A stretch of DNA of 54,561 nucleotides, the filler included, from Sluysia triapertura (lineage: Eukaryota): the NCBI GenBank assembly GCA_046118255.1. It is 4 parts of 4 records of this genome, joined end to end, with 100 filler letters (N's around TTAATTAATTAA, not from the genome) between each part and the next. Parts side by side here need not be neighbours in the genome. Positions count along the whole stretch, not along the records: positions 1 to 12,047 come from JBJNIA010145054.1; positions 12,148 to 24,497 come from JBJNIA010117306.1; positions 24,598 to 38,314 come from JBJNIA010023621.1; positions 38,415 to 54,561 come from JBJNIA010209591.1. The stretch is one strand, 5' to 3'. The notes under the pieces are model-generated. The model searched no databases. It had not been told where the DNA came from and worked only from the letters and a program-made list of their open reading frames with translations. Below are positions 5,620 to 45,723 of the stretch, piece by piece; the first letter of the stretch is position 1; every line of letters starts with the position of its first letter. The translations under genes were made by a program, and so were the position numbers.

Positions 5620-6781
5620 GTTAAATTTTTCCAAGACATCTCTTCTGACCATGTTCAGAATCTTAACATCTGAAATAAAAATCATGGATAAATAAGTTTT
5701 ATTATAAAATTTGTAATTGTTTACCTCGCTTGTAGTATCATCGTTGTTCCTTTATATTTGATCATCAGTTAATTGGACGTTAACTGATGATAGTTCCAAT
5801 CTAGTGTTCTGTGACAAAGACGAATCACCGCACAATATTGCATCTTCTAGTTGATTAATGTTGTGAGCATAGCTGCAAGTGATCCCGTACTTCAAACACA
5901 ATCCATTTAGATCGGCTGGGTAAGTACACATCATTCTTTTTGGCTTGTTTGGTTTATAATTAACTTCACGAAGATCCTTGTAATCATGACAGTTCGCCGA
6001 ATCATTACATTTTTTAAAACCATTGCACACTTTTCTATTTAATTCATGTATTAGATTTGAATTAAAATGGTAAGATCGACTTTTAAATTCGATTGCTTTA
6101 ACAGTCATTGATGATACTGAGCTAATAATTCTGTAGCATGATGTATCTTGGAATGATTGATCTTTAATGTAAATATAATCTTTATTTGATTCATGAAATT
6201 TCAATTTTCCGTTATAATTAATTTTGAGTATCATAAATTGATGTTTGTAATTTGTATAGATCTTTACTATCTCACCGGTCTTGAACAGAACTTATCCAAA
6301 GGCATAATTGACTTGATCTTGTAAAATGATTAAGAAAGGCATTACTTGATTTTTTACGATGGTATAGTACTGTAATAGAGACAAGTTTAATTTTATCACT
6401 AATAACAAGACGAATTTCATTTAATGTTTGTTTTCGAGAATTATTTTGACAGCAATCGTCTTGTTGGAAACTAAATTGGTTGTTGATTTCATTAAAAACA
6501 TTTTGTAATTGTCCAAGTAGACTTACGTATACGTGAGGAAATAGCGTTATTTCATTCACTACATTACTAATAGAATTTATTTTGGTAAGAGTTAATTTTG
6601 TACGATCAATACGTGTTTCAGTCATATATTTGCGTAAATATGCTTCACCTCCAGTATAAGCAATATAGAATTCGTTATCAAATATTATATCATCGATTAT
6701 GTTCCTATAAATCACTTCATCAACCGCTTTCGTCAACGCTTTACGTTTAAATTCAAATTGTTGGTTACACATATTAAACAA
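5620..6781 (-). pseudogene. Unkempt-type CCCH zinc-finger family gene, copy 1 (frameshifted)
   Basis: ORFs 6272-6781 and 5752-6234 overlap out of frame at ~6275-6291 (one +1 shift joins them). Finger C-TYPADLNGL-C-LKYGIT-C-SYA-H at 5863-5928. Probable terminal intron 5724-5670 (GTAAAC...TTTCAG). Confidence 0.75.
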
Positions 6782-6944
6782 GTAATAATGATTAAATTTA
6801 TCAAAACGAAAAATTTTTATATTTTTTAATTAATAACTGCGAATTAAAACAATTAATAACAATTACTGGTAAATTTTAGCCAAATCAATGATTTTTATAT
6901 CAGTCTATTAATTAATCTTTGTTTTCTGTAAAAAATAATTGTAA

Positions 6945-7113
6945 TTGGCTGCCCAATCAAAGTGAACATGACCAGTGACACAAGTACGAACTTTTATTGG
7001 GCAGTCAACAAGAGTAGAAAATGAAATAGATGGTCGTGTAATAAGCTGTCATTAGTCGACAGCTGGCAAAATGGTAACAATTGATTTGAAATATCTGTCA
7101 ACTGGTGACAGCT
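6945..7113 (-). promoter_or_regulatory. Upstream element with inverted CCAAT arms and CTGTC/GACAG hairpins
   Basis: TTGGCTGCCCAAT (6945-6957) ... ATTGGGCAGTCAA (6996-7008), then AGCTGTC-n7-GACAGCT and CTGTCA-n5-TGACAG. The same inverted arms lie upstream of copy 2. Confidence 0.55.
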
Positions 7114-7499
7114 AATGGTAATTAAATTTTATAATGAAATATATTGGTGAATAACAAAAATCAGTGGTGAATAACAAAAATTTAGGACAAAAATTGATGA
7201 TAATCGTAAAAATGATAGTGATAAAAATGATAATAATAATAATAATAATAACACAATGTTATTATTATTATTATTAAACTGCATAAACTCTTTCTGAATT
7301 TAACACGACATTTCTTTAATTTTCTTTATATTTCTTGAAATATTTGAAAGCTAGAATTAAAAATGATAGAATTAAGGATAATAACAAGAGCGACAATGTT
7401 ATCGTTATTATTGTTATTAAAATGCATAAAGTCTTAGATTCTTTAAAAATTGTTCATGATCTTACTTTAAATCTTTTTAGATTTCTTAACATATTAGGC

Positions 7500-8087
7500 T
7501 TATGAGAACAAATCAACTTTACAGAATTGTGAATTTGCGATGTTAGGGCTTAAAGATGTAAGATAATGTGTAAGGCTTTTTTTATATAAATCTTAACTGC
7601 TGTTTTCTAGTTTTTTTGTAAATTTTAGATAATTGAACCTAATATTCTAAATGAAATAATGTTTCTAACTGAAAATGTTAATGGATCATGAGTTATAAGG
7701 GTGTAGTTGAGTGTATACAAAGTAGATAAGTTACAGTCTCACTTTTGATAAGTTGGTAAGGTGCTTATAGATGTCTAAAATGTGATTTATTGTCTTAATG
7801 TTTTTAAATAGTGATATATTTATGTGCTGTTGAAAACGAGTTATGAGTTTAAAATGTTCGAATTGATTAGAAGGTGTCAGGTGGATAATTTCGAATGTGG
7901 TTGTAGTTTGATTGTTATGAATATCGAGTAAAATATTTTTGATGAATGTCTTAATGTGAATTGATGGCATTGGATGTCGTTGTGGTTTATATGTTATGAG
8001 ATTGTGGATATAAATTGACTTTAGCGCTTGAATTGTTTTGGTGAATGTAGGAGATAAATATGAGAATGTTAAAATGTTAAAGGACAT
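7500..8087 (-). repeat. Dispersed 'module Y' (CA-skewed coding-like sequence, includes ORF 7731-8087)
   Basis: ATCAATTCACATTAA (minus strand, 7951-7965) is identical to 22288-22302 (+). A similar sequence occupies the same position relative to copy 2 (29160-29700). Confidence 0.6.
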
Positions 8088-8269
8088 GGTTTCATGTATA
8101 ATGTGTTGATTTAGCTTGATATTGTTTTATATTAATTTTTGAATATGAATTATAGATTTTGTAGTATTATGAAAAATGATTTTTATAAAATTTGATAATA
8201 GTGAAAGGTTGACTACCACAGTAACGATAATACACAAGAGATTTATAATAATATAATAATAATAAAACA

Positions 8270-8410
8270 GATTTAGACACTTGTGAAACTATTATGACTG
8301 TGTTTATGTTTTGATGTATTGTAGTTTTTTTAATAACTCGTTTATGGAATATATGTTGATTTATGTTGAAGTTTGTTTGTGATTGTTATGAGTTGATTTA
8401 TAATTCATCG
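8270..8410 (-). repeat. Module X, partial copy
   Basis: Minus-strand AAACACAGTCATAAT is shared with the copy at ~39555; CATAAATCAACA is shared with the 4.7-kb copy. Confidence 0.6.
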
Positions 8411-9900
8411 TTTAATTTCAATTTTAGTTGATTTTGCGTACAAACTTTATTGAGTTCTTAAAATAACTAAATAATAAATTTACAAACATGTTATTTAACA
8501 AATAATTCTTGTTCATTTTTTAAAATTCATCATTACTTATTTTCACGATATATTTAAGTTTTAATTTAAATGATAGAGCTCAAGATTAACTCATAAATTA
8601 TCTGAAGAAATAAATCCATAACGAAATTTTGAATTCGAAAGTTAATTTGAACTCAATTATGTAAACTCTCATTTTATGCACACATCACTATATTGAAATT
8701 TGCCTACTAAGTGATGTGTCATATACAATTTCTATCCACTGACTCAATTATACTATGATAACATCCAGGAAAAATCGATAATTTTTTCTATTGTAATACA
8801 CGCCATCAAACAATTAATGCATAATGTGTGTGTTCATAAAAATATTTTGTAGAAATAACCCAATATTTCTTTGCAAACATCATCACTTTCTTCCTCAAAT
8901 TATTAGAAAAAACGCCATGTTACTTTTATTTCTTTTATTCAACAATTTTTTACAATTTAATGTTGGAAATTAATACAATCTCATAAGATTTTGTAACGGT
9001 AAGCTACTTTTATATTTCATTAATTTAAATATTAAAATTTTTATTGATGTTTTATGGTGGCAGATTAAATGTTTATTTACTTTAATATTAGTTTTGGTAA
9101 TTTTAAACAACTGAAATATTATTATTTTAAATTATTTAACAAAGAAATAATTCCAGTTACAAATTCAATTGTTTAACATTATCAACAATTGTTATTAATT
9201 TCTAGTTATGTTGTATAATTATGAATTAAATATATATATTTGTCTTAAATCGTAAATAAAAGGTACTAGAAATTGGTAAATATATTTTCTTAAGATAAAC
9301 TTTCAATAAATACAATTAAATAATTTTTCGTATAAATTTATGTAATTAATTTTTCCATTTTAGCTATATTTTAAGGCTTAAATATGTAATCAAATATGAT
9401 TTCATATAATTTAACAAACGGTATGAATTTATTTTTGACCTCAGGCGTGAATAGTGAAGTTTTAAAAATATAAATAATTTAACAAAAGTAAAATTTGCAA
9501 ATTCAAATATGTCAATTCTTTTAAAGTTTTCTCAGAAATATTGTTAGAAAAGTAAACTTTTTAGAATTTAAGTTTTAAGTCTTCATTTTTTAATATTATG
9601 ATTAATTGATTGTTGTAACTATTAAGCTTTGTATAACTCTATGTTGTCAAGACGTATAACCGTTATTTTTCACTAAATACATCTCTGTCTCTGTGTCTCG
9701 AAAAGACAATTCAATAAATCATTGTAGTCGGTGAAGTTTTCAAAGTTGTTTTGTCAGTCTGATTTAACTACATTGGTATCACAGTTGTTGTCCGGTTTAT
9801 ATTTGTTCAAATATATCAAATTTGTATACATACATATATAAGTACATACATAAACACAAACATATAATAATCCTCAAAATAACGATCTTTACTGACGACG

Positions 9901-10592
9901 ATGCTATTAACAAAGGATCAACACCATGAATCTAAAGAAGTTATCGTTGAATCCACCAATGAAAAAGAAAGCAGTATTTCGAAAGAAGAGAAAAAAGTAA
10001 CAGAAAAAACGGAAATAACAGAAAATGACTTAAATTCAATTGATAACAATGATAACAATAGTAATACTAATCATACCAGTAATGTTACGAAGATACAAGT
10101 AAAACAAAACCAACGTGGAGGTTTGGTTATTTTAATTTTTTTAAATTTTATTGCAGAAGAAAGAAAATTGTTTATTGGTATGTTAAGCAAACAACAGAAT
10201 GAAGAGGACGTTAAAGAAATGTTTAAGCAATTTGGTAATATTGAAGAATGTACAATATTACGTGATCAAAGTGGTAATAGTAAAGGTTATATTAATATCA
10301 TTTTTAATTAACGATTATCTATTTATTATAGTAATTATTTTACTATATTATTTTTATAGGATGTGCATTTATTAAATTTTCTACTCGTTCTGAAGCTTAT
10401 ACTGCAATTGGTGCAATGCATGGCAGTTTAACAATACCCGGTGCTTCATCAAGTCTTGTAGTTAAATTTGCAGATACAGAAAAAGAACGACAGACACGAA
10501 AATTGCAACAATTTATTAATCCACTTGGAATTTTAAATCCTGGATTGGCGTTATCAGCATTAGGCGGTGCTGCTTATACACAGTACTTAGAA
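9901..10592 (+). CDS. CELF: CELF3-6 / Bruno-like RNA-binding protein, partial (exons 9901-10120, 10157-10285, 10360-10592)
   Basis: Spliced product [51 protein letters not shown]...[24 protein letters not shown] is the CELF3-6 RRM2 signature. GT-AG introns of 36 and 74 nt. The last donor is tentative and RRM3 is not seen before the contig end. Confidence 0.93.
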
Positions 10593-11983
10593 GTTAGTAA
10601 TAGAAATACTTCAGATTGATTTATAATTTAATTTATAAATAAATATTAAATTCATAAAATCAAAATAATAATGTAAGGGTGTAAAAGTTATTATATTTTT
10701 TGTATGTTTAAAAATAATTGTAAAAATTATTAAAATTAGTATTATTTAAAAAATTATAATAATAATTAAATTAAAATTAATAATTATTTTAAAAGTAATC
10801 TAAAAAGAATTTAAGGAATGTTCCAGAACAAGGAAGTGTTTTAACGAAGTAATTTTAATATACTTGTCTTTACGCGTATATAAAGAAAAACAAAGGGGTA
10901 CAGACGCCATTGTTATTACGTCATTCATATGAAAATTTCAAATTGAAGAAGCCACAATTATTGCAACAGACGCCATTAATTCAAAATTATCAATTCCATC
11001 TATCGCTTTTGGTTATTCGCTGTGCTCCAGAAGTCAACAAGTTAATCGATCATCCAGCAGCATGTATCCCGCGTATACGATAAGAGGGATTACAACTTCA
11101 ACTTTTCCGTAATCTGATCAATCAAATTAGGCACTTCCTGATCTTGAACATTAATTTATTAATTGAATCAGTAAGTTTGTTTCATGCACATTGAAAACTC
11201 GCTAGAGTTAAAATGTTTACGTAAAATATCTAATTTTCGGTTGGTCATTAAGATCAACCATAAAATCATTTTAAAATCTAAAATCACCGACTTTTAGTTG
11301 GCCCTTAAGGTCAGTTATAAAATCTTTATCAATAGGTAGAGTCTTCTGGCTAGACCTTTTGTTATAAGTAATTTAATTTTGTTATTATACTTGTTACCAT
11401 TTAAATTACGTTATTTGTGTTTTCATTTTCATAAATTTATAGTTGTTTTATTTTAATTTATTAAGTTTATTAAATTTGTAGTATAATAAAATTTAAAAAT
11501 TTTTGAGTTTTAGCTTATTGTAACTTTTACGTTAAATTTGTAACAGAAGTCGAATTTACTTTCTTTATTTTGCAGGAAATTTAAAATTAGATAAATTTTT
11601 CATTGGAGGCACTTTGATTACAGTGTAAACTCATTAATTCTTCAAAGGATTAAAAAACAAACTTTTATTGATAGTTTATATAAAATAACACATGCAAACT
11701 CGTAAAATCCACGATTATTGTAGTAAGACTTGATAAATAGTTGCAGTTTTAAAGGTAAAAGAGTAACACATCTTTATACAAATCTTATTAACCGTATTCT
11801 TACGTAGACTTAAATACAGACATCCGCGTTGGTCGTGGCTATCTTTATAAGTTATTCAGTTATCTGTTGACATAAATGACAATTTTCTTAAGTCAAAGTA
11901 AGGAGTATTTTTATATAGTTAATCTTTAAAATTGTTTTCACTTAATTTTACAGGTACGCCATTAGTAAGTAGTATAATAAGTA

Positions 11984-11984
<1 letters not shown>

Positions 11985-12045
<61 letters not shown>

Positions 12046-12047
12046 TA
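11985..12047. repeat. (AAT)n microsatellite at contig end
   Basis: Directly visible. Confidence 0.95.
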
Positions 12048-12147
12048 NNNNNNNNNNNNNNNNNNNNNNNNNNNNNNNNNNNNNNNNNNNNTTAATTAAT
12101 TAANNNNNNNNNNNNNNNNNNNNNNNNNNNNNNNNNNNNNNNNNNNN
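12048..12147. other. Synthetic contig linker (44N-TTAATTAATTAA-44N)
   Basis: Six-frame stop spacer, exactly 100 bp; the identical layout occurs three times. Confidence 0.95.
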
Positions 12148-12217
12148 CATAAGTTATTAGCCAATTAAGTTAATATTATAAAATGGGACCAAAAAAGGTT
12201 TGGTAGTGAAAGGGTTA
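12148..12217. mobile_element. Probable piggyBac-type element end
   Basis: GGTAGTGAAAGGG-TTAA matches the TTAA-CCCTT terminus typical of piggyBac. The partner end is not present (contig boundary). Confidence 0.4.
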
Positions 12218-13482
12218 AAAAACACATGTTTAAAAATAATGATTGAAAGCTAAGCTAATATATAAGTAATTTTTAAAAAGATTTTGCACACACCAAAATA
12301 TTATAATTTAAAGATTCAACAATTTCGATTCAAGTTTTTTTATTCGGAAAATTGTGTACAAGTTCTCTCCTTGGGAATTCTTAATTCTACGAAGGTTTTA
12401 ATCGATCAAAATTTTATACAGATTCTTTTCTTGGAGACGCTGCTTTGTGGAAATCATTTTTAAAGAAAAATTATTAATCGATCATAAGTAAGCTAATTTT
12501 TGATAAGTGCATTTATAAAATTTGCATCAACTTATTACGTAAAATCATTTTAAATTGACCCAAGAATTAATCCTGGGTCAAAATTTTTATCAAACTTTAC
12601 CAATTTGTTTATTTATTTATCATAATTCGTTATTTTATTTTGATTAGACTTTAAAAAATTGAGTGTACATTTGTTCATTATTATTTTGTTTATTAATAAA
12701 GTCTTTAAATTTTTTAAAAAGGAAAAAAGTCTCGATTATATAAAAAAAAGATATTGCAATATTACTATAAGTGGTTACAAAGTAAAGTAAAATTGTTAAA
12801 AATACTGTTAAGTTCTTTAACGTTGCCATAAGATTATAAAATACAGTTGGTATTAATTCAAATTAAGTTGCCTAAGGGTGCAATAAGGATATAAAATACA
12901 GTTGATATTAGATAAAGCTTATTATAGAAAATACCAAAAGAAGTAAATTATAAGCAAGTAGTTTTAAAGTGATAAAAGCATTTGATCATAAAAGGATTAT
13001 TTCAGATTAGCTATTTGTTAAGTTCATAAACAGATTTAACCCTCTCATTGTATTCATTTTAAGAGTTAAGTCTGTTTGTGCATCGTAGAGATTCAAATCC
13101 TGTGAGCACGTCCTTTTCAAGATAAACCCGTTACACAGGCGAACCCATTTTACAGCAACTGTTATAATTGTTTTTCGTAAGAAAGGAAACACAGAAAACA
13201 AAAATATCATTTGCATAAAACAGTTAATACCTCACTAAAGCATTGTGTATGATTGACCTCCACTATTTCCATTTAACGTTCCACTGACAAGAGTAGGCCC
13301 TTAATTGAGTAAGATCAATATCGTAAGGGACTCACAAATTTGCAACAAAATAAAAGCAAAGTTATATATTTTCAACATAAAGATATTGTTATTTTTAGAC
13401 TTTATTCTCTTTTGTTAAATATATTTGACAAAATATAAATTTTTAAATAACCTACTCTGTATAGTTTACATAACACTTAATC

Positions 13483-14698
13483 TCACAACAGCAATATTTT
13501 ACACACTAAAAGCTTTAACATATATTCCTTAATCATTTTAACCTCAGGTAATAATTCCATTGATGCACGAGCTTCTAAGGAGTTTAATGAATCTGTAGCA
13601 CGATTTACAATACCATTGAATAATGAGTAATATGCAATTGACGCCATTTCTAAATAAACAGGAACAGAAAACGTTGGAAGCCGCTTTAATATAATATTTG
13701 CAGCCTTACGACCTGATCTTGGTGGAATTAAAAGCTAAATTGGTTAATATATAATACATGAATATAAAATTATCAAACTTGATGTTTCTCTGGGTGAACT
13801 AACGAAATTAATTTCAACATGGTTAAAAGACTATTACTAGACATATGACAAATATTATCATAATAAATTCTTAAAAAATATAAAATTAAATATGAACGAT
13901 CAACAGATGTGATATGATTAATAATTTTTTTGGAACATAAACTTGTTTCAGAAACTTTGTGAAAAGCGTCAGGAACACCAAATTTTAAAGTCGGTAATAC
14001 ATTATTTTGGGGTAAGACACCTAGTGAATTAAAATATGAATATGGAATGAACACTGAAAAATTAGAACTTGAATAGATTGTATTTTCAACATTAATTTGC
14101 AAATCATTATTTTCAACTTTATTGTATAAAATAATTTCTGCATCCGAATTATAAAGTGAGAGCAAACTTGCTTCAATAATATCTGCAATAGAATATCCAT
14201 AATGATAATCATGAGACTTTTTTGAATCATTGAATGGAGAAATTGAAGATGACCGCCGACGAGATCTTTGACGCTTTGGAACATCTGATTCGCTGTGAGA
14301 TTGTACTTAATAAATAAATTTCAAAATAAAATTACCTAAAATTTAAAATAATACTTACAGCAGATACTAAAATATGCCAACATCATTGATGGCAGTATAT
14401 CCACAGCGACTAAAATCAATTTATTATCCGAAGAACAAAATAATTTATTTATATATGTACAAACATGATGAAGTGAATCGCCATACACTTTATCTTCCAA
14501 ACGATTATATACAGAATAAATAGATTCAAGAAATATGTTGTTAATTGAAGAGAAAATAGAACCATCTGATTCATATTCCAATAAAATTTGCGAAGCTTTA
14601 CTTGAATCTGCAGTCAAATGAATTTTTTCGTTAAATTTAACTAATTCATCTATTAAATTTAACCATGCTGTCAATTTAGAATTCAATAACTTTTTCAT
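13483..14698 (-). CDS. FAM126: Hyccin / FAM126 family (PI4KA complex subunit); exons 14698-14359, 14305-13779, 13734-13483
   Basis: LHHVCTYINKLFCS..ILPSMMLAY; IEASLLSLYN; RSYLILYFLRIYY..MSSNSL; YYSLFNG..ATDSLNSLEARASMELLPE follow the hyccin motif order. Two short in-phase GT-AG introns; the exact 3' end is uncertain. Confidence 0.85.
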
Positions 14699-15179
14699 AT
14701 TTTCGCATGTACTTATAATAATAAAAATTCAAAAAATGAATAATTTTATAATGCGAAACAAGGTAAAAATAAAATTCAGCTTTTAATCCACATTAAATGT
14801 TTCCCAGTTTAAGGTAGTTTTAAATTAAAACAAATTTAAAGTAAGAGAATCAAGTTAATTTTTCTAAGGAATCAAATTTATATCATAAAACGGTTCATAA
14901 AATCGTTGTATTCAAGATTTAATATTAAAAATACTATTATATACGAGACAAAATTAAAAAATATTTTGATTCGAAAAGATGGTTTTCAAAGATTTAAAGT
15001 TAAGAAAAATTAGTGTATTCTTTAACATTTCGTAATTATGTAGAAATCAAATACATGGAAATTTTAAAATGAGAAAATCCCATATAAATAAAAAAACTGA
15101 AATTGCTCAAAAAGTCTGAAAAGCTTTAAAAATTGATTAAATTAAATTCCATATTCCATAATGATCAGAATAAAATTAT

Positions 15180-16330
15180 GGAAAATGCTATTTTGGATCG
15201 AGATTGAATGGATATTTTTTCCTAAATGTTGAGATGGTGTAGTAATTGGTGTTATAATAAAAATCAAATAGGCAAGAAAATAGTTGACATTCATTTTAAA
15301 ATTTGGAATTAAATCTTACTGACATAAATGAATCTTTATATTTAGAAATTATATATAAACCACCAAATAGTTCAATTAAATAAGTTTTAGGTGAATTTTT
15401 TGATTATTTTGGTAAAAACAAAGAAGTTCAGTAACAGAAGATTTTAAATGAAGAATATAATATAAGTAAAAAGTTCGTCGAATGAACCGTTTAAAATTTA
15501 AACTAACTAATATGGAAAAATATTAGATTTATTAATAACTAATATTGATAATATATTATTATTGATATAAAAGTGAATGAACTATTAGATATATCTTATC
15601 ATTATTTATTTGTGTTTGGTATAAAAAGATTAATTACAGAAATTTATCAAAAGTTGAAGAGTAAATAAAGCCTTGTTTATGTAGATGCATTAAGTAAATT
15701 ATGTAAAAGAACATTTTATATGCAAGCACTTTAAATGTAAAAATATTATAAGAAATCTTGCTTAAGTCAGAGATTATTTAGTTACGAAGAATAAAACAAT
15801 TTAAAGAAAATTTATAAAGCAAAGAATATATAAATTCTAATAAAAACAATGAAAATATTTACTAAATCATTTAAGTTGAATGTTAAGAATATTTATAAAT
15901 TATTTGGTTGAAAAAAAATCATTTACTTAAAGATAAAATTACTTCAAACTTCTAAATTTATCACCAAAAGTCGAAAAATTACAAAATATTAATAAATCAA
16001 ATATTTAATTAGACATACAAAAGTATAAAATGAGTTTGAATTTAAAACATTAATGATGATTTAATAAATACTACGTTGGAAATGTCAAGAACCTATTCTA
16101 TTGAAAAGTGTTAGCCACTCATTGCATATCTTTATTGTAAATTCTAAAATTCCTTAACAACGAAATATTTCCTCATCTGAAATATGGCGATGCATTATTT
16201 TTTTACTTAATGTCAAATATATCATTCTTATCAAAATTGATCGAAGAAACGTTTCGCCATAATTAGACGAAAAATAAACAATTAAAAATAGAATACAATA
16301 ACGGTATACTACAACGGCGATTTTTAGAAA
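15180..16330 (+). mobile_element. Degenerate LINE (CR1/L2-like) APE endonuclease and RT remnants
   Basis: IIYKPPNSS (~15348-15374, YRPP motif) and LMSNISFLSKLIEE (~16207-16248, cf. RPISNLxFLSKxxE). Many stops and frameshifts. Confidence 0.6.
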
Positions 16331-16960
16331 TTATAAATATTTTATTGAAGAAATTCGTGTCGTTTAAATTGAATATGAAATAAACATTACAGATAATGTT
16401 CATAATTTAGTATTAATGCTGAAACTTCACTTTTTATATTTATTTCATGTTCGTACAACAAAAATTACCTATTAATTACTACGGGCCACGATAAAAACGT
16501 AAAATTTATTTTGGCATATATAAAAAAGGTTGCTCATTTTGGTATACTGTACTAAATTTCGTAGAGAAAATAAGATATTATCTCATACAGTGTTTTATTA
16601 CAGTTAACTGCACAAATTCTCATCCTCAAGTTGATTATTTTCAAAGTGAAATTGAAATGTCATAATTTATAGTGCGATATTAAATATATAGCCTTCCATG
16701 TGCATGTTTTCAGATATATGTGAAGGATTACATATACAAATTACTTCACATATCATAAATGTTGTCAAACTATCATTGATTGCCAATTTTTTAAAATATT
16801 TAAAATATTTTTTTCTTTTTGTAACGCAGATATTTTAAATTTAAATTATTTGTCACAAACAGATCTTTATTAAAATTTAATTTAAATATTATTTGAATTG
16901 TAATAGTAAGGTAATGCACAATGTGCACTTCTTTCAAAATAAAATTACATAATATCTAAC

Positions 16961-24597: not shown

Positions 24598-27494
24598 ACC
24601 ATCCAAATCCATTTATCCGTAAACATAAGTGGGTCTTGTTCTCTCTACAATGGATCTTTGTCTCTACTTTGTTTTTATTTCTCCCTCTAATACTTTTCTT
24701 TTTAACTCTATTTTTCTGTGTGTTACAGAATTCAAATAATGGTTACGTTGTCTTTACACACTGACACACTAACACGCAATTCTCAATGTCCGCCTGAAAA
24801 ATCACAATAGGAGAGTGATTAAACAGTTAGTTGAGGTGTAAATTATTGACTTCATACAATATGCATATAGAAAGAGAAAAATAGAGATTAATCGATTTTA
24901 TTCGGTTTAAATTTTATTTGATTATATATTATAATATAACTTAGTAATAATAATTGAATTTTAATTATAAAATTATTTTTTTAATTCAAAACTTAATCGA
25001 AATTGTAATATTTAAATAGTTAAATATTTTTTAAAATAATTAAAAGAAAAGTAAATAGCAGTAGAAATCGATCTTTAAGATAATCGTATTATCTTAAAAT
25101 AATGTAACGTTAGAAAAACATAAAAGCATTTAAACAAACTCATTTATTTATTTATTGTCAAAAAAATAATTAATCAAGATATCTTTGGAAAAGTTTTATT
25201 TTCAATATTTCTAAATGTTAGTACTTTTTAAGGATTTTTTGGTTAAATTGCTCAGAAAGAAATATTTAAATAATTGTGAACAAAAAAGAAGTATTAATTA
25301 TAGGTATTTCCTGATTATACACAACCACTATTTGTAAGAACACTGTTTTCTTCATATGCTTTATTTGATTTTTTTAAATTTTCTCGGAATTACTAATGGT
25401 TTTCCTTTTGCATTTACATCTTGATGAATTACATCTTATCATACTTCCATTTCCGAAGTGCTTTTCGTCGTAAGCCGTTAACATCTGCTTCGAATACTTC
25501 TGAACATATGGGCCAATAAAGCCAATTATCTAATTATACTATGAATACTGTTTGAAAATGTATAATAAAGCAAATTATCTTTAAATAATCTTTATTTAAT
25601 ATAAGACTTTTTAAATGTTACTAAGCTAACATAAAGCTAACAAAAATTTCAATTTCTTTCATCTTACTCATATAAATAAACATATTACGATGTTCAATAA
25701 TTATAATAAACGATATTTTTAATTTATTAAATATCTTGATATCACGCTTATATGAATAAGAATTTTTGTATAAATAGCTAATTAAATAAGTATTAAAAAA
25801 CATTTAAGATTTTTACAATATTTCTGAGTTAATATTTAATTAATTGTCGATAATTAATCAAAGTAAGCATAATTTGGACACACAATAAAGCAAAAGAAAT
25901 TTAATATTGATTAAGTCATTACTAACCATTTTGTTCACAAATCTTTGCTTTTTGGGGAATACTTGTCTATTTCGATATTAAGTATCCGTTAGTTTTATCT
26001 ATCTATCTATCTATTTAAAACTTTCCAGGCAATTTAATACATTGCTGTTAAATTAATATTTAATTATATATTTTTATCTCTTTTGTTATTTATTCATTAA
26101 TAATATTTATTATAATAATATACTGTCATACATTTATTAAGAAAACGTTTAAAGACCTTCGAACATTTATGTATTGTTCATGTGTCCGCCATATGGTCAT
26201 AAGACATCAACTATAAATTTATTTTGCCTTGTATGAAATAAGAAATTAATCTCATAAACATTAAACAAATAATAGAAAATTGTACATATATTTTGTAACG
26301 AAATTTATGATATATACTATTTACTTAAAATTATAAAAATTAAATAGAATACATTGTAAATATCACGTTCAAATATTTTCAAAAACGAGGAAAATTTTTA
26401 TGCATAAAAATAAGAAGATTTTAAATCAATCAAAATCACTAAAATTTTGAATAGGAATATACATACTACAATTGATTACCAATATTTCCGAATCTGAAAA
26501 TAGTAGTTACAATCAGAATTCTGAATTTGAAGATACAAACTATAATTTATTAATCGATTATCAAAAATTTTAATTTTTAATATACAATTGAGTGGTATTT
26601 ATTGTATTCTCAGCCTAAAGATTAAAATAATTAAATTTACTGTCATTGTTGTGGTGTCACGCCTATCGTTAATAATTTTGTCATCCTTAACATTTATAAA
26701 ATTTCATACTCAACCTATTCACTTCACTATTACTTTCCTACATTAACATAAACTACAAATAATGCTCTCCAAACTCTAAACCTCATACTAAAATCATTTA
26801 TGTCAATATCATAGTTCCCTTCCCTCTGATTATCATCCACACCATCATTATCATCACTTTCAGTGTTATTTTTACCATTTTATTATTCTTATAATTTTTA
26901 CCAGGCATATTAATTTTATTATCCTACCGTTTTTATTATTTTTCAAAATTACAAAGAATTTTAAAAGTTAACGATTGTTTTAATATTGCTTTTTATATAT
27001 TGTTAAATAAACAATTAAATGTACAATTTTTATATATAGTTTTTATATAAATACATTTAAAAATTATTATAAAGACGTACATTTGTATTAATACCTTGGT
27101 TAAAATTTATGAACAATATTTCCAAGAAAAATATAGTTAAATAATTAAATTTGATTTGAATTTCAATTTATGAAGTTTTTATCTTTGAATATATAAAATG
27201 GATATAACAAACAAAAACCGAATACCACACTTGCTAATTCAGCACACTCCAATTGGTCCACATTGTCGTTTTCAAATGATTCCTGCTAAATGATTAGCGT
27301 TTATAAGTTTAAAATTTAAATTTAAATGATATTTATTAATTACTTTAATGAAATCAATTATTATAAATATGCAATTTAGGAATACTTTGTAATCACAATT
27401 TATATACATTTTTATTTCATCATTACAAAGATAACAATCAAGATTAACATATAATAACTTTATTTTTTAAAATAAACAACATTTAAACATAAAT

Positions 27495-28648
27495 TTAAAA
27501 TTTTATGTTTAAATGTTTATTGTCTTCTGAGTGCGCCTTACCACCCGTTTTACTTGTTTCCTAAATGATTTAAAATAAAATGAATAAAGGAATTGGAAAA
27601 TCATAGTTTTATAAAATAAACAAATATTAATTACTTTATAATTCCAGCCATTCTTGTAATGGATTGGATCTGAGCTAAATTCTCTTATTACGTTGCTAAT
27701 TCTACCAAAATAATTAATTGAATTTGAGTCTAAGCCAAAGTCGTTTTTTAATTCAGCAACATTATGTGCATATGTACATTTCTTACCATATCTGGAACAC
27801 TCTGCATTCAGTATTGTGATATAAGGGTAAATAATGATTTTAACATAACAAGAACGATTGTTATTTGCTCGAACAACTTTATATGTTGGAAATTTGTTAC
27901 TCTTGTGAATGGTGTTGACAAATTGACTAAATTGTTCGTTCTAACCGTATCGATGTCTACTATAAATTCAATGCATCTTTGTAGACAGAAATGTCAGGAT
28001 TGTTGTCACAACATTTGGTGCAAATACATTTGTTCAGGAGCATGGATCATTTTTGAATTCACATTAAAAATACTAAAATTATCGTGTGAATTATTACTTC
28101 TTTCGATAAAATATATTGCTATTTGATTTTCTTTAACAATCTCATGGAGAGGATGAGCCTCTTCTTGTTTCTTGCACGTACATGGCAAACGCAAACATTA
28201 ATTCTTTATCCCTTAGATGGTTATCGACTTGAATTAATTGTGAATTATAAGTTGCATTCTCTCGATTTAATCTAATATTTTCAATGTATGGATGTAAAAT
28301 GTACAAATCAAAACTGTAATTATTTAAACTATAATTATTAACAATCACTATATAATTTACACTTTGCAGCTTCAAATCTCGAATTAAAAGTTTCAATTTA
28401 CTTATATTTGTCAAAAGTACACAATGCGTAATTAAGCCTAAATTGCTTTGAAAACGATGCTTGATCCAGTTTATTCTCGAATATAAAGCTTTGTCAAGTA
28501 ATACAATAGCTAGATCAAAGCCTGATTTGTAAAAATTCAAATCAATTGGATCATTTTCAATATTGATGTCTACTTGATCAACAGATAATTCATTTTGATC
28601 TTTAAGAAAATCATCTATATAAGCAATCCAATTTTTCTTCATTTTCAA
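27495..28648 (-). pseudogene. Unkempt-type CCCH family gene, copy 2 (frameshifts and stops)
   Basis: ORFs 28142-28648 and 28006-28194, then ECSRYGKKCTYAHNVAEL (finger core 27764-27799, first Cys lost), NYFGRISNVIR and terminal intron 27634-27561. Confidence 0.7.
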
Positions 28649-28778
28649 ATATTCTTTTCGATTACTCAGGTAAAAATCAAATTAAATAGCGATTTTATTA
28701 ATACTGTTGTTCTTAAATTAGATACCAAATAAATTATTTATTTATAAAATTTCATGATGATATTTTTGTTCTGTATCT

Positions 28779-28927
28779 GAGTGGCTATCCAATCAAAACG
28801 CCTATAGCTGCTGTTGAAAATAGTTCCAATTGGGCAGTCACTCAAACACTGTACAAACAACAACGAGCCAGCACAAACAGAAATACAATCTTGGCACTTA
28901 CAATAAACATCTCTCAGTGATTGACAG
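28779..28927 (-). promoter_or_regulatory. Inverted CCAAT element upstream of copy 2, plus TGATTGACAG
   Basis: GAGTGGCTATCCAAT (28779-28793) ... ATTGGGCAGTCACTC (28829-28843); TGATTGACAG at 28918-28927. Confidence 0.55.
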
Positions 28928-29029
28928 TAGGCAATATTGATACAAAGTTATTTAATTACAGGCAGTTACAATATTTTGTTTAGTGCAAAATTAATTATGC
29001 AGTGATAAAAATGATGATTATTTATAAAA

Positions 29030-29700
29030 TTGAAAAATTAAAAATAAAGATAATAATAATAATGTTATTATTATTATTATAAAATACATAAATTTCTTTA
29101 AAAAATTACATGAACCTGCTGATATTTAAATTTCTTTTTATTTCTAGACATATTTGAAATTATTTAAAGATTTCTATCATCTTTGAAAGATTAGAAGGCT
29201 AAATGTTGAGGTTGTGGACTTAGTATTTTAAATTCAGGTTACGCATTTTGGATAAAATTTGAAGATGTAATTGTGGTTTTAATGTTATTAATTAATATGT
29301 TAAATGTTTTAAGTGAAATTTTAAATGCTATTTAATGGTTTTATCTGAAGATAAGTTTGAGTATTGAGAACTTATGACTTAAGTGTTTTGAGATAATACA
29401 TAAATGTTTTATGTGAATTTTTAAATATACATTGATGTTTTGAATGAAAGTAATATTTGGATGTTAGAAGATTGTGACTTAAAAATGCAATGAAAAAAGT
29501 GTGGTTTAGAGGGTATAAGGAAAATAAATTATAGTCTAGATTTTGGTACATTCTAAAAGGTAATTGTGTGATAATGAAAAATATGATTCTGATTATATTG
29601 ATATGAAGCTATGTGAAAATATGTTTCAAAGAGTTTTTTTAATGTGCTTTGCAGATTTTGAAAGTGAATGTGATTTTGTTGTATTTAAAAGTAAAAAAAA
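29030..29700 (-). repeat. TAA tract + module Y, homologous to 7220-8090
   Basis: AATGTTATTATTATTATTAT.AA...CATAAA and TTTCTT..TATTTCT...ATATTTGAAA are shared with 7255-7350. Minus-strand AATTCACATAAAACATTTAT vs AATTCACATTAAGACATTCAT in copy 1. Confidence 0.65.
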
Positions 29701-29711
29701 TTAAATAGAAT

Positions 29712-30402
29712 TTGTTAAAAGTAATAGGTTGGCCACCACAATTAGATGAATTGTATAGTTTGAAAACATTGGAAGTAATTAATCCAATGCCACTTGAACA
29801 ATATGATTTTGAGTTACCAAAATCTTTTGACATTTTAAAAGGTATTTCCTTTTCAAGAAGTAGATTTTCAGTGTTTAACAAACATAATATGAATACAAAT
29901 GTCAATAAGGTGTCCACCTTTATAGCCGTTTTAATCAACAAATTAACGAACTTCAAGTTGAAAGTATCCGAAATATTACATTTTATAAAGGAAAACCAGA
30001 TTTGAGTTATTAATAAAGCAGTTGTTTTCTATGATGAGACAATACATAATAATACTGATGTAATTAAGATAGAAACGGTAAATTATGTATATGTATCATT
30101 TTTATATATTTCCACTTATGATGGGTCTAGAACTCCGGAGATGAGAGCCAGTCTTGGAGACATACGACTTAATGTTGTTATCGAAGGAGATTTCATGTTG
30201 GTTCCAAATTATCTCATAAACAAGAGAAATTCCGAAGTGTTTGCGTTCTTGCAGTTTCTGTTTCAGATGAAGCCTTCATCGTGCCTCAGATGATTCCAAA
30301 TATAGTCAGGTTGCACCTATTGACTATTTCCGAGGGAAGTTTCCAATGCAGTTTGAAAACTTCTCTATTCATGTTCTTGACTACCTTCCTAGTGGTATTT
30401 AA
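29712..30402 (+). pseudogene. Disabled ORF homologous to the Gypsy-associated ORF at 49320-49801
   Basis: The frame stays open past one TGA (30003) to 30293, then shifts to KFPMQFENFSIHVLDYLPSGI*. The N- and C-terminal parts align with the 49.3-49.8 kb ORF. Confidence 0.6.
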
Positions 30403-30459
30403 AAAACTAATTATTTTAAATTACTTAAAGACATTGATTATGTCTATTCGTAACAAATA

Positions 30460-31020
30460 TTTTAAAACTAACTATTCTAATAAATATATTATCTCAATGT
30501 ATTTTCTCGTACCTATTGTACTTCATATAAACACAATACCAATTAATTTGCCTTTTAAAGGTTTTGCAGTCGCAGTAGTTACCCGCTGAAACAAGAATAC
30601 GTTTTAGATTAGACCAAATTTAAAATTTCGATCCGTACGTATGTTGCAATATACGAGAACATACCGTAATTGAAGATTTACACTGTTTCTCGCCATCATA
30701 TGTTCGTGATTTTTTTGTACGTTTTATGTTTTATAATTTTTATAAAATTTTTTACTGATTATGCATTAGATAAACGAAGTTTTTATTTTGTCTTATGCCT
30801 TTCAATTAATGAATTAATTCTTGGCCTTAAGCCTATTTTTCATTTCGAGTTTAAAACATTTTCTACGGACCTTAAGTCCAAGTTTTATAAAATAATCCTA
30901 ATTAATTTAATTGAGTTCTTCTTTTGTAAATCAGTTTTACTTAATTGTCACAAACACCTTTTAAATGCAGATCTTTTACCACAACTTTCTCAATTCAACT
31001 TTACTCGACCATCTCAATTG
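30460..31020 (+). repeat. LTR/3'UTR-like dispersed repeat
   Basis: GGCCTTAAGCCTATTTT (30823) is identical at 49135; similar motifs on the minus strand near 3544 and 51446. Boundaries are approximate. Confidence 0.45.
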
Positions 31021-31572: not shown

Positions 31573-31865
31573 TGTTGGGGTAAAAGTCATAAAGTGCTGT
31601 GACGGTAATATTGATTATACTAAAATAAAAGTGTTAGAGGGGGCAGCACAATTGGCAGCAGTAGCACGAATATCAATTTCTTAAATAAACAATTAGTATC
31701 AGCCTTATTACATTAACTACATCCATTTATTTATATTTATTGTACCACATTATTTGATTATTTATGTACTTGATTTTGTTGTAAAATAAAAGTTTTCAAT
31801 TCATCGAAGAGCGAGAGGTCCCAGGTTCGATCCCCGGTCAGTCCATTATATGAAGTTTAACAATA
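31573..31865 (+). repeat. tRNA-containing cassette copy B, 5' half of tRNA replaced by ~160 bp of other sequence
   Basis: The leader aligns to copy A up to GGGGC (31644). The 3' half GCGAGAGGTCCCAGGTTCGATCCCCGGTCAGTCCA lies at 31811-31845 and the trailer is shared. Confidence 0.8.
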
Positions 31866-32502: not shown

Positions 32503-32651
32503 NNNNNNNNNNNNNNNNNNNNNNNNNNNNNNNNNNNNNNNNNNNNNNNNNNNNNNNNNNNNNNNNNNNNNNNNNNNNNNNNNNNNNNNNNNNNNNNNNN
32601 NNNNNNNNNNNNNNNNNNNNNNNNNNNNNNNNNNNNNNNNNNNNNNNNNNN
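32503..32651. other. Scaffold gap (N run)
   Basis: Plain N run; ORFs spanning it are artefacts. Confidence 0.98.

Positions 32652-36681: not shown

Positions 36682-36683
<2 letters not shown>

Positions 36684-36750
<67 letters not shown>
36684..36750. repeat. (TTA)n microsatellite
   Basis: Directly visible. Confidence 0.95.
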
Positions 36751-38314: not shown

Positions 38315-38414
38315 NNNNNNNNNNNNNNNNNNNNNNNNNNNNNNNNNNNNNNNNNNNNTTAATTAATTAANNNNNNNNNNNNNNNNNNNNNNNNNNNNNN
38401 NNNNNNNNNNNNNN
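38315..38414. other. Synthetic contig linker
   Basis: 44N-TTAATTAATTAA-44N. Confidence 0.95.
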
Positions 38415-39473
38415 TATTACAGTTCATTATAATACCTTATCTTAGTTCTTTAATAACGTTCAACTTATTATATTATTCCAAGTTTTGACCCTTATATCAA
38501 CCTTTATCCTTCACTAATCTCAACACATATTTCAATTCTATTATTACAATTATTTTTAATCAATAAAATTTTATAAAAATCTATTTTTTAGTTACAAAAC
38601 TAATGCATGTTGAATTTATTTTTAGAATTTTAGATGTATGAAGAATCACAAAATTTTTTACAAAATATAAAAAGTGTGCGTGTTTATTTTTAGAATTGAA
38701 ACATATTTAGAATGTACATATTGATTATTGACAAAAATATAATTCAATATATTTAAAATTAATCACAAATAAAATTAAAGTCATGAAAAAATCAACACAT
38801 TTTTAGATAAAACTATACGTGACTACTTTTAATTAAGTATCAGATAAATTCTTTTATTGCTAAGGCTTTTTCAACAAAGTGACTCACATTTCTAAACCAT
38901 CCCTAAAAATTAAAACAACAAGAACCAGATAGACAAACTTAGAAAACATTTCTCTCTTCCAGCATCAGATATGGGCATTAATTTTTTTAGAATATCCAGT
39001 CTGATTTTGCTGGTACAAGCTCATTAATGTATTTTTGATCGAGATCATAATTTATTTAGTAATGTAGCTTTCCAATTAAAAAGTGAAAATGTACGATTTT
39101 TCATTTCTAGGAAAGTTAAACAATTGAAACGTTTGATTGCGTTTAAAAATTAATGTATTTATGCTTAGTTTAATAATACTTGATCAAAATTCGAAAAATG
39201 AAGTGATTGTGGAACGAATGAAACTGACTAAGATTAGATTAGTTAAATGTCAGCAGTTATTTAAAGATACTAAGTCAAAAGAAGTTGATGAATCATTTCG
39301 TTTTCTGAGTGATGCAGTTTGTGGAAATTTACTGTTTAATTTAAAACAATGCACAAAATATCGATGAACAAACTAACAACAGCAATCATTCAATAATGTT
39401 ATCTATTCTCGTAACACATCAGTTAGCATTTCATATTCAAAGTTTTGTCATTATTGAGAATGATTGTTATAGT

Positions 39474-39830
39474 GAACTCTAAATCTACACATCACAAATC
39501 GACACTTCATACATAAATAAAATGCTAAACAAATTACACGATACCTTCTAAACAAAACACAGTCATAATTTATAATTATCATAAATTTATAGTTATTGTT
39601 ATAATAATTACTTACACAATAATTACTCTTATAATAATTTTCATATTATAGTAATAATTTTCACAATAATAATAATAACAACATTTCTGTATTATAATTT
39701 TTTAATTATTATGATAACTGTTTTGTCACAATTACTTTCTTATTTATTTCCCATCTTTTTTGTATGTATGTATGCATGTTTATTTTTGTGCATATTTTAT
39801 TGTTCCTCTTATCCCATCACAGTGCATAAT
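39474..39830 (+). repeat. Module X copy
   Basis: 23-bp identity with the 4.7-kb copy; reads TLNLHIT / MLNKLHDTF. Confidence 0.75.
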
Positions 39831-39879
39831 CGATTAAATGATATAAAAATTTATCTAATATACATTGTTGCAAAATAAA

Positions 39880-40215
39880 ATGAATCATCCATTTTCAAAA
39901 ATTAATTGCACTGATCAAACAACAGAAAATTATCCAAAACATTGAAGATTGGAACTGAAGCTGCAAATCATTCCATTGATGAATGCATGTCTCAAGTTGA
40001 AAAATATTGCCAGAAAGAATCTACGCATTCTCTTGCAAAATTGAGCTACTAATGCACCTCCATTTTATTATACTCAAATTAAATTAAAAAGAAGAATCAC
40101 ATTAACATCAGACGATTCTAATGTTTTCAATCAAATTGCCATTAATTATCCTAATGTTATTGTTTATGATAGTAATCAGAATTCTAAACGGCATTACGAA
40201 TTAGGTCTTTTATAA
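39880..40215 (+). pseudogene. Frameshifted ORF of unknown function downstream of module X
   Basis: MNHPFSKINCTDQ / KTLKIGTEAANHSIDECMSQVEKYCQKE / ATNAPPFYYTQIKLKRR...YELGLL* in three successive frames. Confidence 0.4.
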
Positions 40216-42315: not shown

Positions 42316-45300
42316 AGATTATCAAAAATATTCAAAACTAGCTGCATATCCATTTCTATTGAAAATGTTACAAGATGTTGAAAAAAGGTATATTTTTATG
42401 AATTAAATAATGTATGTTTAATAATTATTATTGATTATTTATTATAATTTTAAAAGATAAATAATAAATATATAAAATATAAATTTAAGCTGAAATTACA
42501 CTGGAGAGTTTCCAAATTTATATTTTGTAAAATATATTTAAATTAAAACGTGCGATTGAGTTTACAGTAAATTACAAAAAGTTGTGATATTTTACAAGCA
42601 ACATCCCGAAAAGGAGGTGAGTATGCTTATTTCATGATTAATTTTTAGTTTTTTTGCAACATTAAAAAATGAGAAGTATAAAAATTCCGTTCATCATGAT
42701 GGTAACTTTTTTATTCTTTTGAACAAATCTTTCGATTTGGAACCAGAAATTTGTTCAGTTTCAATTTTATATAATCAAATTCTCTGTTTCTGTAATCTGC
42801 AAACAAAATTTTAAGACATTTTAGTTAATATCAGGACTAAATATATCTACTGAAAAACCTCTGATTATCTTCAAACTAAGATCAGTATTGTTCGATTTGT
42901 GTAATATTATCAATTCGAAAGTTTAATGATTTTGTTCGGATCTTAAGGTTGCTATCAAACATATGCTTATCAGTCTTGCCTAAGCAAGATAAACTTAAAA
43001 ATAACAAACTTACGAAATACGAATATAAAAACTTTTCTTGTAAGTAATCTAATCTGATCTGTAATTGAATTTTACATCACAATATCACAAATAAAGTTCA
43101 GTTATTTAAATGTTCTAACTAGTCGGCCTGCCAATACCGTCACAATTATTTTACATATCAATTATTGATATTCTTTGTCTTTGCAAGATTTGTAACGATA
43201 ATTAGTATAAAAGTATTGCAATTGTCAAATTGTAATACAAAGTGGGCCTTATGCCCTAGAAATAAAATAATTCAATAAAAGGTATTAGCGCACGTCCTAA
43301 ATGTAAATAATTATTTTATTGAAATTTGAGCATATGACCTAAAAACAAAAGTAGCAAAATATTTAATGTTTAGATGGCGCGTGGCCAACAGCACAGATTG
43401 GTTTTATGAAGATAGAAAATTAGTTTTCTCAATTAAACCATATAATCAAAACCATTCTGTCATTGTTAGACAATGCAATCATTCAAAATATTTTAGTACA
43501 CCAATTTTAGACTCCACAAACTAGGAGTTCAACATACAACAATGAAGATTTGTTCAGGATGGACTGAAAGTCAAGTTTTCGCTTGATTATTTGCCCGAAA
43601 TAACAAAAATAAGCATTTCTTCTATAAATACCGTTATAAAATACTCTGAAAATTACAATATCGATTTAAGACATTGAACAGAACAATTACAGGTGGCCCT
43701 AAAAACAGGTCTATTTTGTGGTGTACTATGCTCCGAAACCAATATATTATTATAAAAATTAAATACTTTCTACTTTGTTTTGATAACTGTCTATATTGTT
43801 TTTATGCAGTTTATAGCTGTTTATATTGTGTTTGTAAAAGTGAATAGCATTGTATGAATGGCTTAGAGATCCAATTTTTTACCTTAAATAATCAATATTT
43901 CATATAATTTATTTAATATAAATATTAATTTTAAATAATAATTATTTTTATATACTAGTTTATTACATAATTCTATGTATCCATTTAAATGCGACCAAAA
44001 ATTAAAATGTTAAGTAAACAAAACTAACTAGTACTTGTCTACCGAAGCTTGAATAATTTATAAAGCAAATGACGGATGTACAAATATGAATAGGTCTATT
44101 CTCAGTGGAAACCTGGATAATGAATTTACTGTCGAATTCATATTAGATCCATTTCGATTGCCTAGTCGTACATTAGCAACTAGGAGGGAGATAGATACAA
44201 CTGATATAAAATAAACATTAAAGCGAGTACAAGTGATTATTAAATTAAAGGTTAAAAATTGCGCTAATTAATGTCGCCACTGTTTCCAGGATTACATTAT
44301 TCGATTCAAAAAATGTGATTCCAGAGAAATAGCAATTTTAATAAGTATTTTAATTGCATATATTGGTTTTTATATTGAAATAATGCTAGTAACAATGATA
44401 ATAAAATATTTCAAGGTTTTCAAAATTGGCCAGATAAAATTAAAAATGATTTTTGAAACAAGTATTCAAGTTCCGCATTAATAATCAATTTATTACTGCA
44501 TATAGCACAATACAAAAATGAATAGACATTGTGATGGTTTAATGTAGAGAATATGACTAAACATTTGAAATCAAGCTACTATAATTGATTATTTGTATAA
44601 TTGATTTTATTTTTTTAAAATTTACTATTAAAACTTATAAATATTATATTTTCTCATTAACTTATTAAAGGAAATTGTTCTGTCATTTAGTAAATTAAAA
44701 AGAAACACTATTAAAAACCTAAGTTTATTAATATTACAAAGAATGTCAATGTTAATTGATTTTCCCATATGCGTCATGCCGGGCCATGTTTATAAATTAC
44801 TTTAATTTCGACTGATGTAGATTCTTCGGACTGTAGTATTTCGAGCGACGTTGTTTATGGGGACTGTGCCAAAATAAAATTATCTATGTATTGCAGTAAA
44901 GTTTTTATACGATTACAATGACTATAGTAGATTGCCAAGTTGATTTCCAATCCATTAAGCTCTTGAATGGAATGTAAGTATTGACAATTAATACCGTGCT
45001 TTTGACAAACCCCAGAATGTGTCATCTGATAAGGGCATAATCCCGTCTTGTAATGTTCATTTAAGTTTGAATTCTGAATTGAATCATGATGCCTGGGATT
45101 GAAATTATTTACTGGGGTTGTAGATTGTTTAATATTAACATTATGGTTCTACACTTTCGATGTCTAATTTTATGTAGTTAGATTCAGTACTAAATCGCAT
45201 TAATGTTTCACTTGACATTCTACAAAGTACTTCGTTTTATAATATCATTTGACATATCACAAACTAATTCGACTTCAACAAATTGTGGATCATGTAGCAG

Positions 45301-45723
45301 AAATAAGAACTTCTTTACGATCTGATAATAGCATTTTGTTACACAATTTTGCATTCGTTTAAAATTCCTTTTGTTTTTATTCATCCTTTTATCACTAGAC
45401 TTTGTTGATTTGTATTGTGTTTATTTTGCTTGTAATTCGAATTAGGCACATTCGATTTATCTTCATTATTAATGCCATTTGGCAATTGTTGACTGTTTTC
45501 TTCATTTTTTACTAGATGTATTATCAATTTTCATTTTAGTTTCTTCGCCTGATAAATCCGAAAGGTGTTCGGCAGTCGATATTTTCACAAATAACTGATG
45601 CATTTCAGGACCTTTTTTAAACTTACAACATAATCAAACCTTTCAAGAATCACATCTTGTCCTTTTATTATAATTTAATACTCATTCTTAAACCGAATCA
45701 TCTTTAGTTAGATGCTTTTCTAG

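Follow-up and report, generated by a model that had tools for sequence, protein, structure and literature searches.

Unkempt proteins have a long C-terminal part with a RING domain. They carry six tandem CCCH zinc fingers in two clusters of three, and the first cluster of UNK (ZnF1-3) favours A/U-rich RNA at low affinity, 2.4 uM compared with 0.4 uM for fingers 4-6 (PMC12136788). Among mobile elements, those of the Ginger and Gypsy types end in the pattern TGTNR (PMC2836005). Both systems share features with a repeated gene and its upstream DNA in a 54,561-nucleotide stretch of Sluysia triapertura DNA (assembly GCA_046118255.1; the window), in which N-TTAATTAATTAA-N spacers at 12048, 24498 and 38315 separate four contigs. 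Contigs 1, 3 and 4 each carry one broken copy of this gene on the minus strand, with an Unkempt-type finger; an earlier note on this DNA had placed the copies on three separate contigs. The gene is a real, lineage-specific, decaying repeated gene that is most likely borne by an element. We favour, at somewhat better than even, the reading that the copies are decayed passengers of a mobile element that is TG-ended and non-autonomous and would depend for its movement on an enzyme from another locus. Carriage by a transposable element is also the best of the three options that the earlier note offered, given the sharp TGTGG end and the colinear non-coding DNA shared between copies.

Unkempt-type fingers and the decayed gene

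The fingers of copy 1 (5863-5928) and copy 3 (44972-45037) have the spacing C-x9-C-x6-C-x3-H that was first noticed in them. Both pass the 31.1-bit cut-off of the Pfam family PF25427 (zf-CCCH_UNK), with 34.2 bits (E 2.3e-8) for copy 1 and 32.5 bits (E 8.4e-8) for copy 3. The copy 2 finger aligns with the same spacing and scores 16.3 bits, below the cut-off, because its first Cys position reads Tyr. When 1,060 stop-to-stop fragments of the window are compared, the three finger-bearing open reading frames (ORFs) match one another at E 6.6e-6, 6.9e-5 and 0.003. The solved structure closest to the copy 1 read-through (P0001) is Unkempt (5elh_A, residues 96-129, E 0.39). In copy 1, the finger follows a finger-2-like remnant, and the distance from the remnant His to the first Cys of the finger, 19 residues, equals that from His81 to Cys101 in 5elh_A. 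The copy 1 linker aligns with the Unkempt-like protein P0010 over 44 residues (34%). The Pfam scores, the structure and the linker match all agree with the earlier assignment to the finger-3 type of Unkempt. The remnant spacing and the linker likeness suggest that the finger region derives from the part of an Unkempt-like gene that encodes fingers 2 and 3.

The likeness to Unkempt (UNK/UNKL) consists of the finger-3 spacing, found by PF25427 and in 5elh_A, and in copy 1 also of the remnant and linker. Each locus has one complete finger (copy 1 has the remnant in addition), unlike the two clusters of three described for Unkempt (PMC12136788). The copies further differ in being multiple and broken and in having an orphan N-terminal region. 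Their ORFs extend no more than ~70 codons beyond the finger, with AATAAA after the stop, and contain no part like the long RING-bearing C-terminus. With a single complete finger and no long C-terminal part, the copies are, judged by their sequences, not Unkempt genes.

A phmmer search of 1.84 billion protein representatives gives two matches, both through the finger, and no relative of the region before it. This agrees with the earlier description of the upstream domain as an orphan. Searches for homologous proteins recovered the pre-finger region in 0 of 242 and 0 of 203 candidates, and so did 0 of 8 pattern matches in viral contigs and 0 of 183 in metagenome contigs. Two single-sequence folds have a mean predicted local distance difference test score (pLDDT) of 36.9 and 37.8. 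The second was searched for fold matches; Foldseek returned nothing at E <= 0.001 and VIA a best Z of 3.6, so that no fold match, to a helical capsid domain or otherwise, came from these uninformative low-confidence models. The stretch is predicted, with low confidence, to be mostly strands. A supposed likeness of 6050-6291 to the cold-shock (OB) domain of UNR/CSDE1 found no support: neither Pfam, nor PDB sequences, nor fold searches gave a cold-shock match. A comparison with E. coli Csp was also negative and was a weak test, with one of its seven aligned rows mistranslated and two loci left out.

Outside the finger, copies 1 and 2 resemble one another when frameshifts are allowed. Their N-terminal 700 bases align with a score of 71, compared with 43.6+-5.7 for shuffles (0/40 as high). 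None of 70 and none of 68 real-DNA controls are as high, the best scoring 64 and 69. The homology of copies 1 and 2 before the finger is real but modest. The EIVK and IEF motifs reported in these two copies are both present, 56 and 53 residues apart.

Outside its finger, copy 3 is only weakly tied to the family. The finger itself is as first described, but the copy had been given as 44780-45700; its repeated part is 44607-45414, and 45415-45700 is single-copy and unlike copies 1 and 2 (235/300 and 278/300 shuffles as high). The YFG..I.NV.R segment said to be shared by copies 2 and 3 is there, but the post-finger regions as a whole fall within shuffles (79/200; 40/300), and in copy 3 the segment is in a different frame from the finger. 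The 3' end of copy 3 matches copy 1 without the putative copy 1 intron (7/1000 shuffles as high) but not with it (203/1000), in one of six comparisons. Because the match requires the intron to be left out, copy 3 probably has no 3' intron and the 3'-terminal splice donor once seen there is probably not a donor.

Copy 3, or all three copies, could have arisen separately from Unkempt-like genes, with only the finger in common. Such an origin is consistent with the absence from copy 3 of pre-finger likeness and shared upstream DNA, and with its Unkempt-like YKTGLC start, which copies 1 and 2 do not have. However, both protein and DNA connect copy 1 with copy 2, the 3' end of copy 3 matches copy 1 minus its intron, and copy 3 is itself multi-copy. 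A separate origin is very unlikely as a general explanation. For copy 3 alone, independent origin is doubtful but clearly less remote.

All three copies are broken. In copy 1 there is one frame change between ~6370 and 6275, and there are stops at 6292-6294 and 5752-5754. Copy 1 needs at least 1 break before the stop at 5752-5754 is reached, and copy 2 at least 4; for copy 3 the minimum is 2 over 44860-45414 or 6 if counted up to 45700. The four matched blocks of the neighbouring CWF19L1 gene contain no frameshift. Contigs of one public sequencing run, X1, are identical letter for letter to 44786-45002 and 45275-45715, the breaks of copy 3 included. These two results rule out a general assembly error, and the breaks reflect decay, although X1 is possibly the source of the window and so not independent of it. 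One in-frame stop of copy 1 is absent from most related X1 contigs. A palindrome with 28-bp arms (27469-27526) overlaps the copy 2 stop codon.

The putative introns of copies 1 (5670-5724, 55 nt) and 2 (74 nt) have 15-16% G+C and lie 140 and 129 nt behind the finger His, respectively. The differences listed between copy 1 and related contigs comprise 8 synonymous, 6 non-synonymous and 3 stop-class changes. The synonymous share is 8/14, compared with 29% expected (P 0.024), or 8/17 with stop-class changes included (P 0.08); in copy 3 it is 5/19. These counts are from 40 rows of 564 for copy 1 and 40 of 140 for copy 3, of which 17/19 and 19/22 were used, rows lacking a clear frame being dropped. 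They give a weak hint of past selection on the copy 1 lineage. In a simple scan, not a trained predictor, neither copy 1 nor copy 2 has an N-terminal hydrophobic segment resembling a signal peptide; the top 11-residue hydropathy in the first 35 residues is 0.95 and 0.26, respectively. The sole recognisable domain is of an intracellular, RNA-binding type. The secreted-effector reading, which had been suggested by analogy with parasite effectors, is unsupported.

Shared upstream DNA and its repetition

Copies 1 and 2 have ~1.3 kb of colinear upstream DNA in common, made up of a CCAAT block, an AAT block and a C/A-rich arm (Table 1). The earlier note mentions neither this DNA nor the breaks in the copies. 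The likeness sets in at an identical TGTGG base in each copy (8220 in copy 1, 29740 in copy 2; 0/200 shuffles) and continues inward beyond the first 17 nt (1/1000 shuffles as high). The arms align with a score of 163.5, compared with 111+-10 for shuffles (0/100). The AAT block of copy 1 is 74% alike to 29006-29159 (E 1e-16). The CCAAT block is colinear with 28780-28945 and scores 80.5, compared with 36.6+-6.8 (0/100). The upstream non-coding DNA of the two copies aligns (0/100 for both blocks) while their coding DNA does not (7/100 shuffles as high). Two inverted CCAAT motifs lie 140-230 bases before the ATG, and we infer that this block acts as the promoter. Beside the CCAAT pair are TGATTGACAG in copy 2 (28918-28927) and TGACAG/CTGTCA motifs in copy 1 (7045-7115), which presumably resemble TALE-homeodomain sites. 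A broken ORF without a Pfam hit (29709-30590, plus strand) abuts the TGTGG end of copy 2; by eye it has what we take to be a faint leucine-rich-repeat look.

The position 26650 is the only other match of at least 13/17 to this end in the window (0.23 expected) and would enclose copy 2 in 3.09 kb. As long inverted repeats, 26650 and the copy 2 arm were rejected, having no likeness beyond 17 nt (965/1000 shuffles as high).

Repetition was measured on copies 1 and 3 with X1 contigs, as a depth summed over contigs, which is not a copy number; single contigs have a depth of ~10-30. Between 5300 and 8500 there are 2,527 X1 contigs, of which 1,943 are less than 95% alike. The depth sums to 190-760 across the gene and 155-430 across the promoter-like part, reaches 1,314-16,779 between 7333 and 8402, and is 37.5 beyond. 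Diverged related contigs cover the whole length of the copy 1 gene; up to 19 have another letter at one site, and one 602-base contig covers 5756-6206 with 68 differences. In the copy 1 arm, up to 69 contigs have another letter at one site. For copy 3, the depth is 159-395 over 44607-45414, 24.5-36.7 over 45415-45717 and 24-113 in the other flank, with up to 16 contigs having another letter in the core. Given the depth of single contigs, these values imply that copy 1 has tens of relatives and copy 3 about ten, and that the arm has hundreds. The expectation of many copies genome-wide is supported for copies 1 and 3, the two copies compared. The many diverged relatives, together with the broken state of all copies, also agree with the suggestion of a lineage-specific expansion with turnover.

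The same arm could be the 5' long terminal repeat (LTR) of a decayed Gypsy-type retroelement, with the ORF a Gag-like gene that has a CCCH finger and with solo LTRs accounting for the arm excess. The TGTNR start, an arm far more repeated than the gene, an ORF of ~350 residues with the finger near its end, one apparently intronless copy, and the CCCH motif described for Saci-2 Gag of Schistosoma mansoni (PMC2582038) are all congruent with this reading. However, depth over the CCAAT pair is that of the gene, so the pair is not part of the high-copy arm. Neither contig has a second direct copy of the arm, in a search that sees close copies only and missed the match between the copy 1 and copy 2 arms. 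The DNA that follows the gene contains no ORF of at least 90 aa, over ~3.9 kb in copy 1 and 2.9 kb in copy 2, and no pol. A sense intron and then a stop follow the finger, the finger and linker are Unkempt-like, and the pre-finger stretch is predicted, at low confidence, to be mostly strands. The Gag-like reading is improbable.

A host multigene family under birth-and-death is the least improbable of the rival accounts of the whole set, though still unlikely. The three copies would be pseudogenes, functional members would lie elsewhere, and an old upstream repeat would have been co-duplicated. The gene has its own promoter-like region, intron and polyA signal, as a host gene would, and no mobility enzyme is found in the ORFs and arms scanned. 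The synonymous excess of copy 1 (8/14, or 8/17 with stop-class changes) would also be expected; it does not separate the readings, because element-borne genes are also under purifying selection. In contrast, 3/3 sampled copies are broken, conservation is better in the non-coding arm than in the coding DNA, the likeness stops sharply at TGTGG, and the downstream flanks are unrelated. If the copies nevertheless form a host family, they represent an ordinary lineage-specific expansion with an orphan domain.

The passenger-gene reading and the rest of the window

In the favoured reading, that of a passenger gene, a finger-2/finger-3 piece of a host Unkempt-like gene would have been fused behind the orphan region of ~250 residues. 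The gene would use its own promoter and its transcript would undergo a single splicing event, both of which point to a vehicle of the DNA type. It would travel inside a non-autonomous TG-ended element moved in trans. Short arm-only derivatives would outnumber gene-bearing copies, and copies would decay after insertion. Copy 3 would have come from a sister subfamily as a retrocopy, spliced and truncated at its 5' end. If intact, the protein would serve the element rather than be secreted and, like Unkempt fingers 1-3, may bind A/U-rich RNA with low affinity; transcripts of the element itself would be the simplest target.

Several results weigh against this reading. When no frameshifts are allowed, 8/8 pair tests outside the finger are at chance. 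The weak N-terminal similarity first reported holds for copies 1 and 2, with frameshifts and above all controls, but not for copy 3, which has no likeness before the finger (78/82 and 38/82 controls equal or better) and no upstream arm. There is no long inverted repeat round copy 2 (59/200 shuffles as high). The flanks at 26650 and 29740 differ and no target-site duplication is seen, with the left end unestablished. Downstream, the flanks of the three copies bear no likeness to one another (139, 144 and 157 of 200 shuffles as high). Only one element end is therefore defined. C-rich repeats with a TG start occur frequently in the window, with five start areas listed, which weakens the match at 26650. 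A further TGTGG-starting C-rich stretch is on contig 2 (22052, plus strand). No transposase, integrase, reverse transcriptase or helicase domain is found in the ORFs and arms scanned with Pfam. The estimate of repetition, finally, is a summed depth from a single run that may be the source of the window.

A stronger version of the passenger-gene reading, in which a captured Unkempt module fused to a new domain is the sole gene of a family of small animal mobile elements, retained through very divergent subfamilies because it protects element RNAs, or steers their translation, against host silencing, would be unlike anything in the searches made and is a long shot. The literature searched, with Repbase and most subscription papers outside the search, contains no Unkempt-type finger as transposon cargo. 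Mobile elements with host-like genes are already known. The persistence of an Unkempt-derived finger across subfamilies with only ~20-30% protein likeness would suggest a benefit of RNA binding for the element and, if true, would offer a testable way into the means by which transposons counteract post-transcriptional control. For annotators, 'Unkempt-like' matches in this genome would mostly be decayed repeats.

The contigs of the window are AT-rich (24% G+C), and the neighbouring genes are ordinary, intron-bearing and of host type. Genes with short introns are an RRM gene that looks CELF/Bruno-like (9883-10619, plus strand), hyccin (13773-14728, minus), CWF19L1 (18548-21676, minus) and a histidine phosphatase (45885-46406, plus). 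The CWF19L1 exon best matches tapeworm proteins (53%), compared with 51-52% for other invertebrates, which indicates an invertebrate host and only weakly favours a flatworm. No Rfam family or tRNA gene is called in the window. Two tRNA-like heads (2553-2598 and 31817-31862) are 87% alike and have a B-box-like motif; ARAGORN and Rfam call nothing there, and the heads are possibly a family of short interspersed elements. A very abundant short repeat at 46510-46860 (plus strand) has a TGT start, is C/A-rich, has a summed X1 depth of ~4e5 and contains no Pfam domain. It has relatives at 39465-39700 (plus), 4568-4750 (minus) and 8245-8400 (minus) and resembles a solo LTR or a miniature inverted-repeat element. 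Decayed fragments of a Gypsy-type pol are present at 52826-54021 (minus), with an RVT_1 match (E 8.4e-6) and a weak match to a spumavirus protease; the only reverse transcriptase match found is 52826-53089.

Table 1. Positions of the gene copies and of the associated upstream features in the window
Feature	Coordinates	Strand	Remarks
Copy 1 gene, broken	5599..6772	-	ATG 6772; last exon to stop 5599-5601, AATAAA directly behind
Copy 1 finger-2-like remnant (C-x5-C-x5-C-H), 19-residue linker and Unkempt-type finger	5863..6030	-	Pfam; 5elh_A spacing
Copy 1 promoter-like region	6945..7110	-	Inverted CCAAT motifs 6953-6957, 6996-7000; TGACAG motifs; hairpin-capable
Copy 1 AAT-rich block with perfect 20-bp palindrome 7234-7276	7207..7349	.	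Inverted repeat I19
Copy 1 C/A-rich arm, very highly repeated	7333..8220	-	Colinear with 29200-29760; no Pfam domain
Copy 1 sharp arm start, TGTGG end	8204..8220	-	Copy 2 alignment starts here, 14/17 identical
Possible opposite end of copy 2 element, or start of unrelated TG-ended repeat	26650..26666	+	Inverted 13/17 match
Copy 2 gene, broken, at least 4 breaks	27509..28642	-	ATG 28642; finger 27764-27829; putative intron 27561-27634
Copy 2 arm, AAT block and paired CCAAT motifs	28780..29740	-	CCAAT motifs 28789-28793, 28829-28833
Copy 2 sharp arm start, TGTGG end	29724..29740	-	
Copy 3, repeated broken fragment	44607..45414	-	Finger 44972-45037; apparently without 3' intron; without upstream arm
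Single-copy stretch 5' of copy 3	45415..45700	-	Depth 24.5-36.7

Comparison with known mobile-element systems

Ginger DNA transposons, as described in PMC2836005, resemble the present copies in their TGTNR end (here one end, TGTGG at 8220 and 29740), their extra host-like domains, their spliceosomal introns and, if 26650 is the other end, their size class of ~3 kb. They differ in having inverted repeats of 40-270 bp, where the copies have a 13/17 inverted match at 26650 and nothing beyond; old copies may have lost their inverted repeats. They also have a 4-bp target duplication, none of which is found here with the left end unestablished. Pfam finds no Gypsy-integrase-like DDE transposase in the ORFs and arms scanned.

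Saci-2, a Gypsy element of Schistosoma mansoni, encodes a CCCH-motif protein, according to a second-hand account in PMC2582038, and its host would be akin to the present one if that is a flatworm. The likeness to Saci-2 is by the CCCH description only. Unlike Saci-2, the present copies have no pol and no paired LTRs, have a sense intron, and have a promoter outside the repeated arm.

Helitrons end in 5'-TC and in a hairpin followed by CTRR-3', and have a RepHel gene. No RepHel match is found in the pieces scanned with Pfam, and the defined end, known on one side only, is TGTGG/CCACA. Helitrons, Terminons and Burro are alike to the present copies in carrying accessory or captured host-like genes in mobile DNA, but the TGTGG/CCACA end differs, and the parts covered of PMC6431247, a review of large transposons, mention CCCH 0 times. 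A Penelope or Terminon element with CCCH cargo, considered as a further possibility, found no support in section 8 of that review or in literature searches.

As far as these copies show, they fall outside Unkempt in having one finger, outside Ginger in having no transposase or long inverted repeats, and outside Gypsy in having no LTR pair or pol. They work like gene-carrying mobile DNA.

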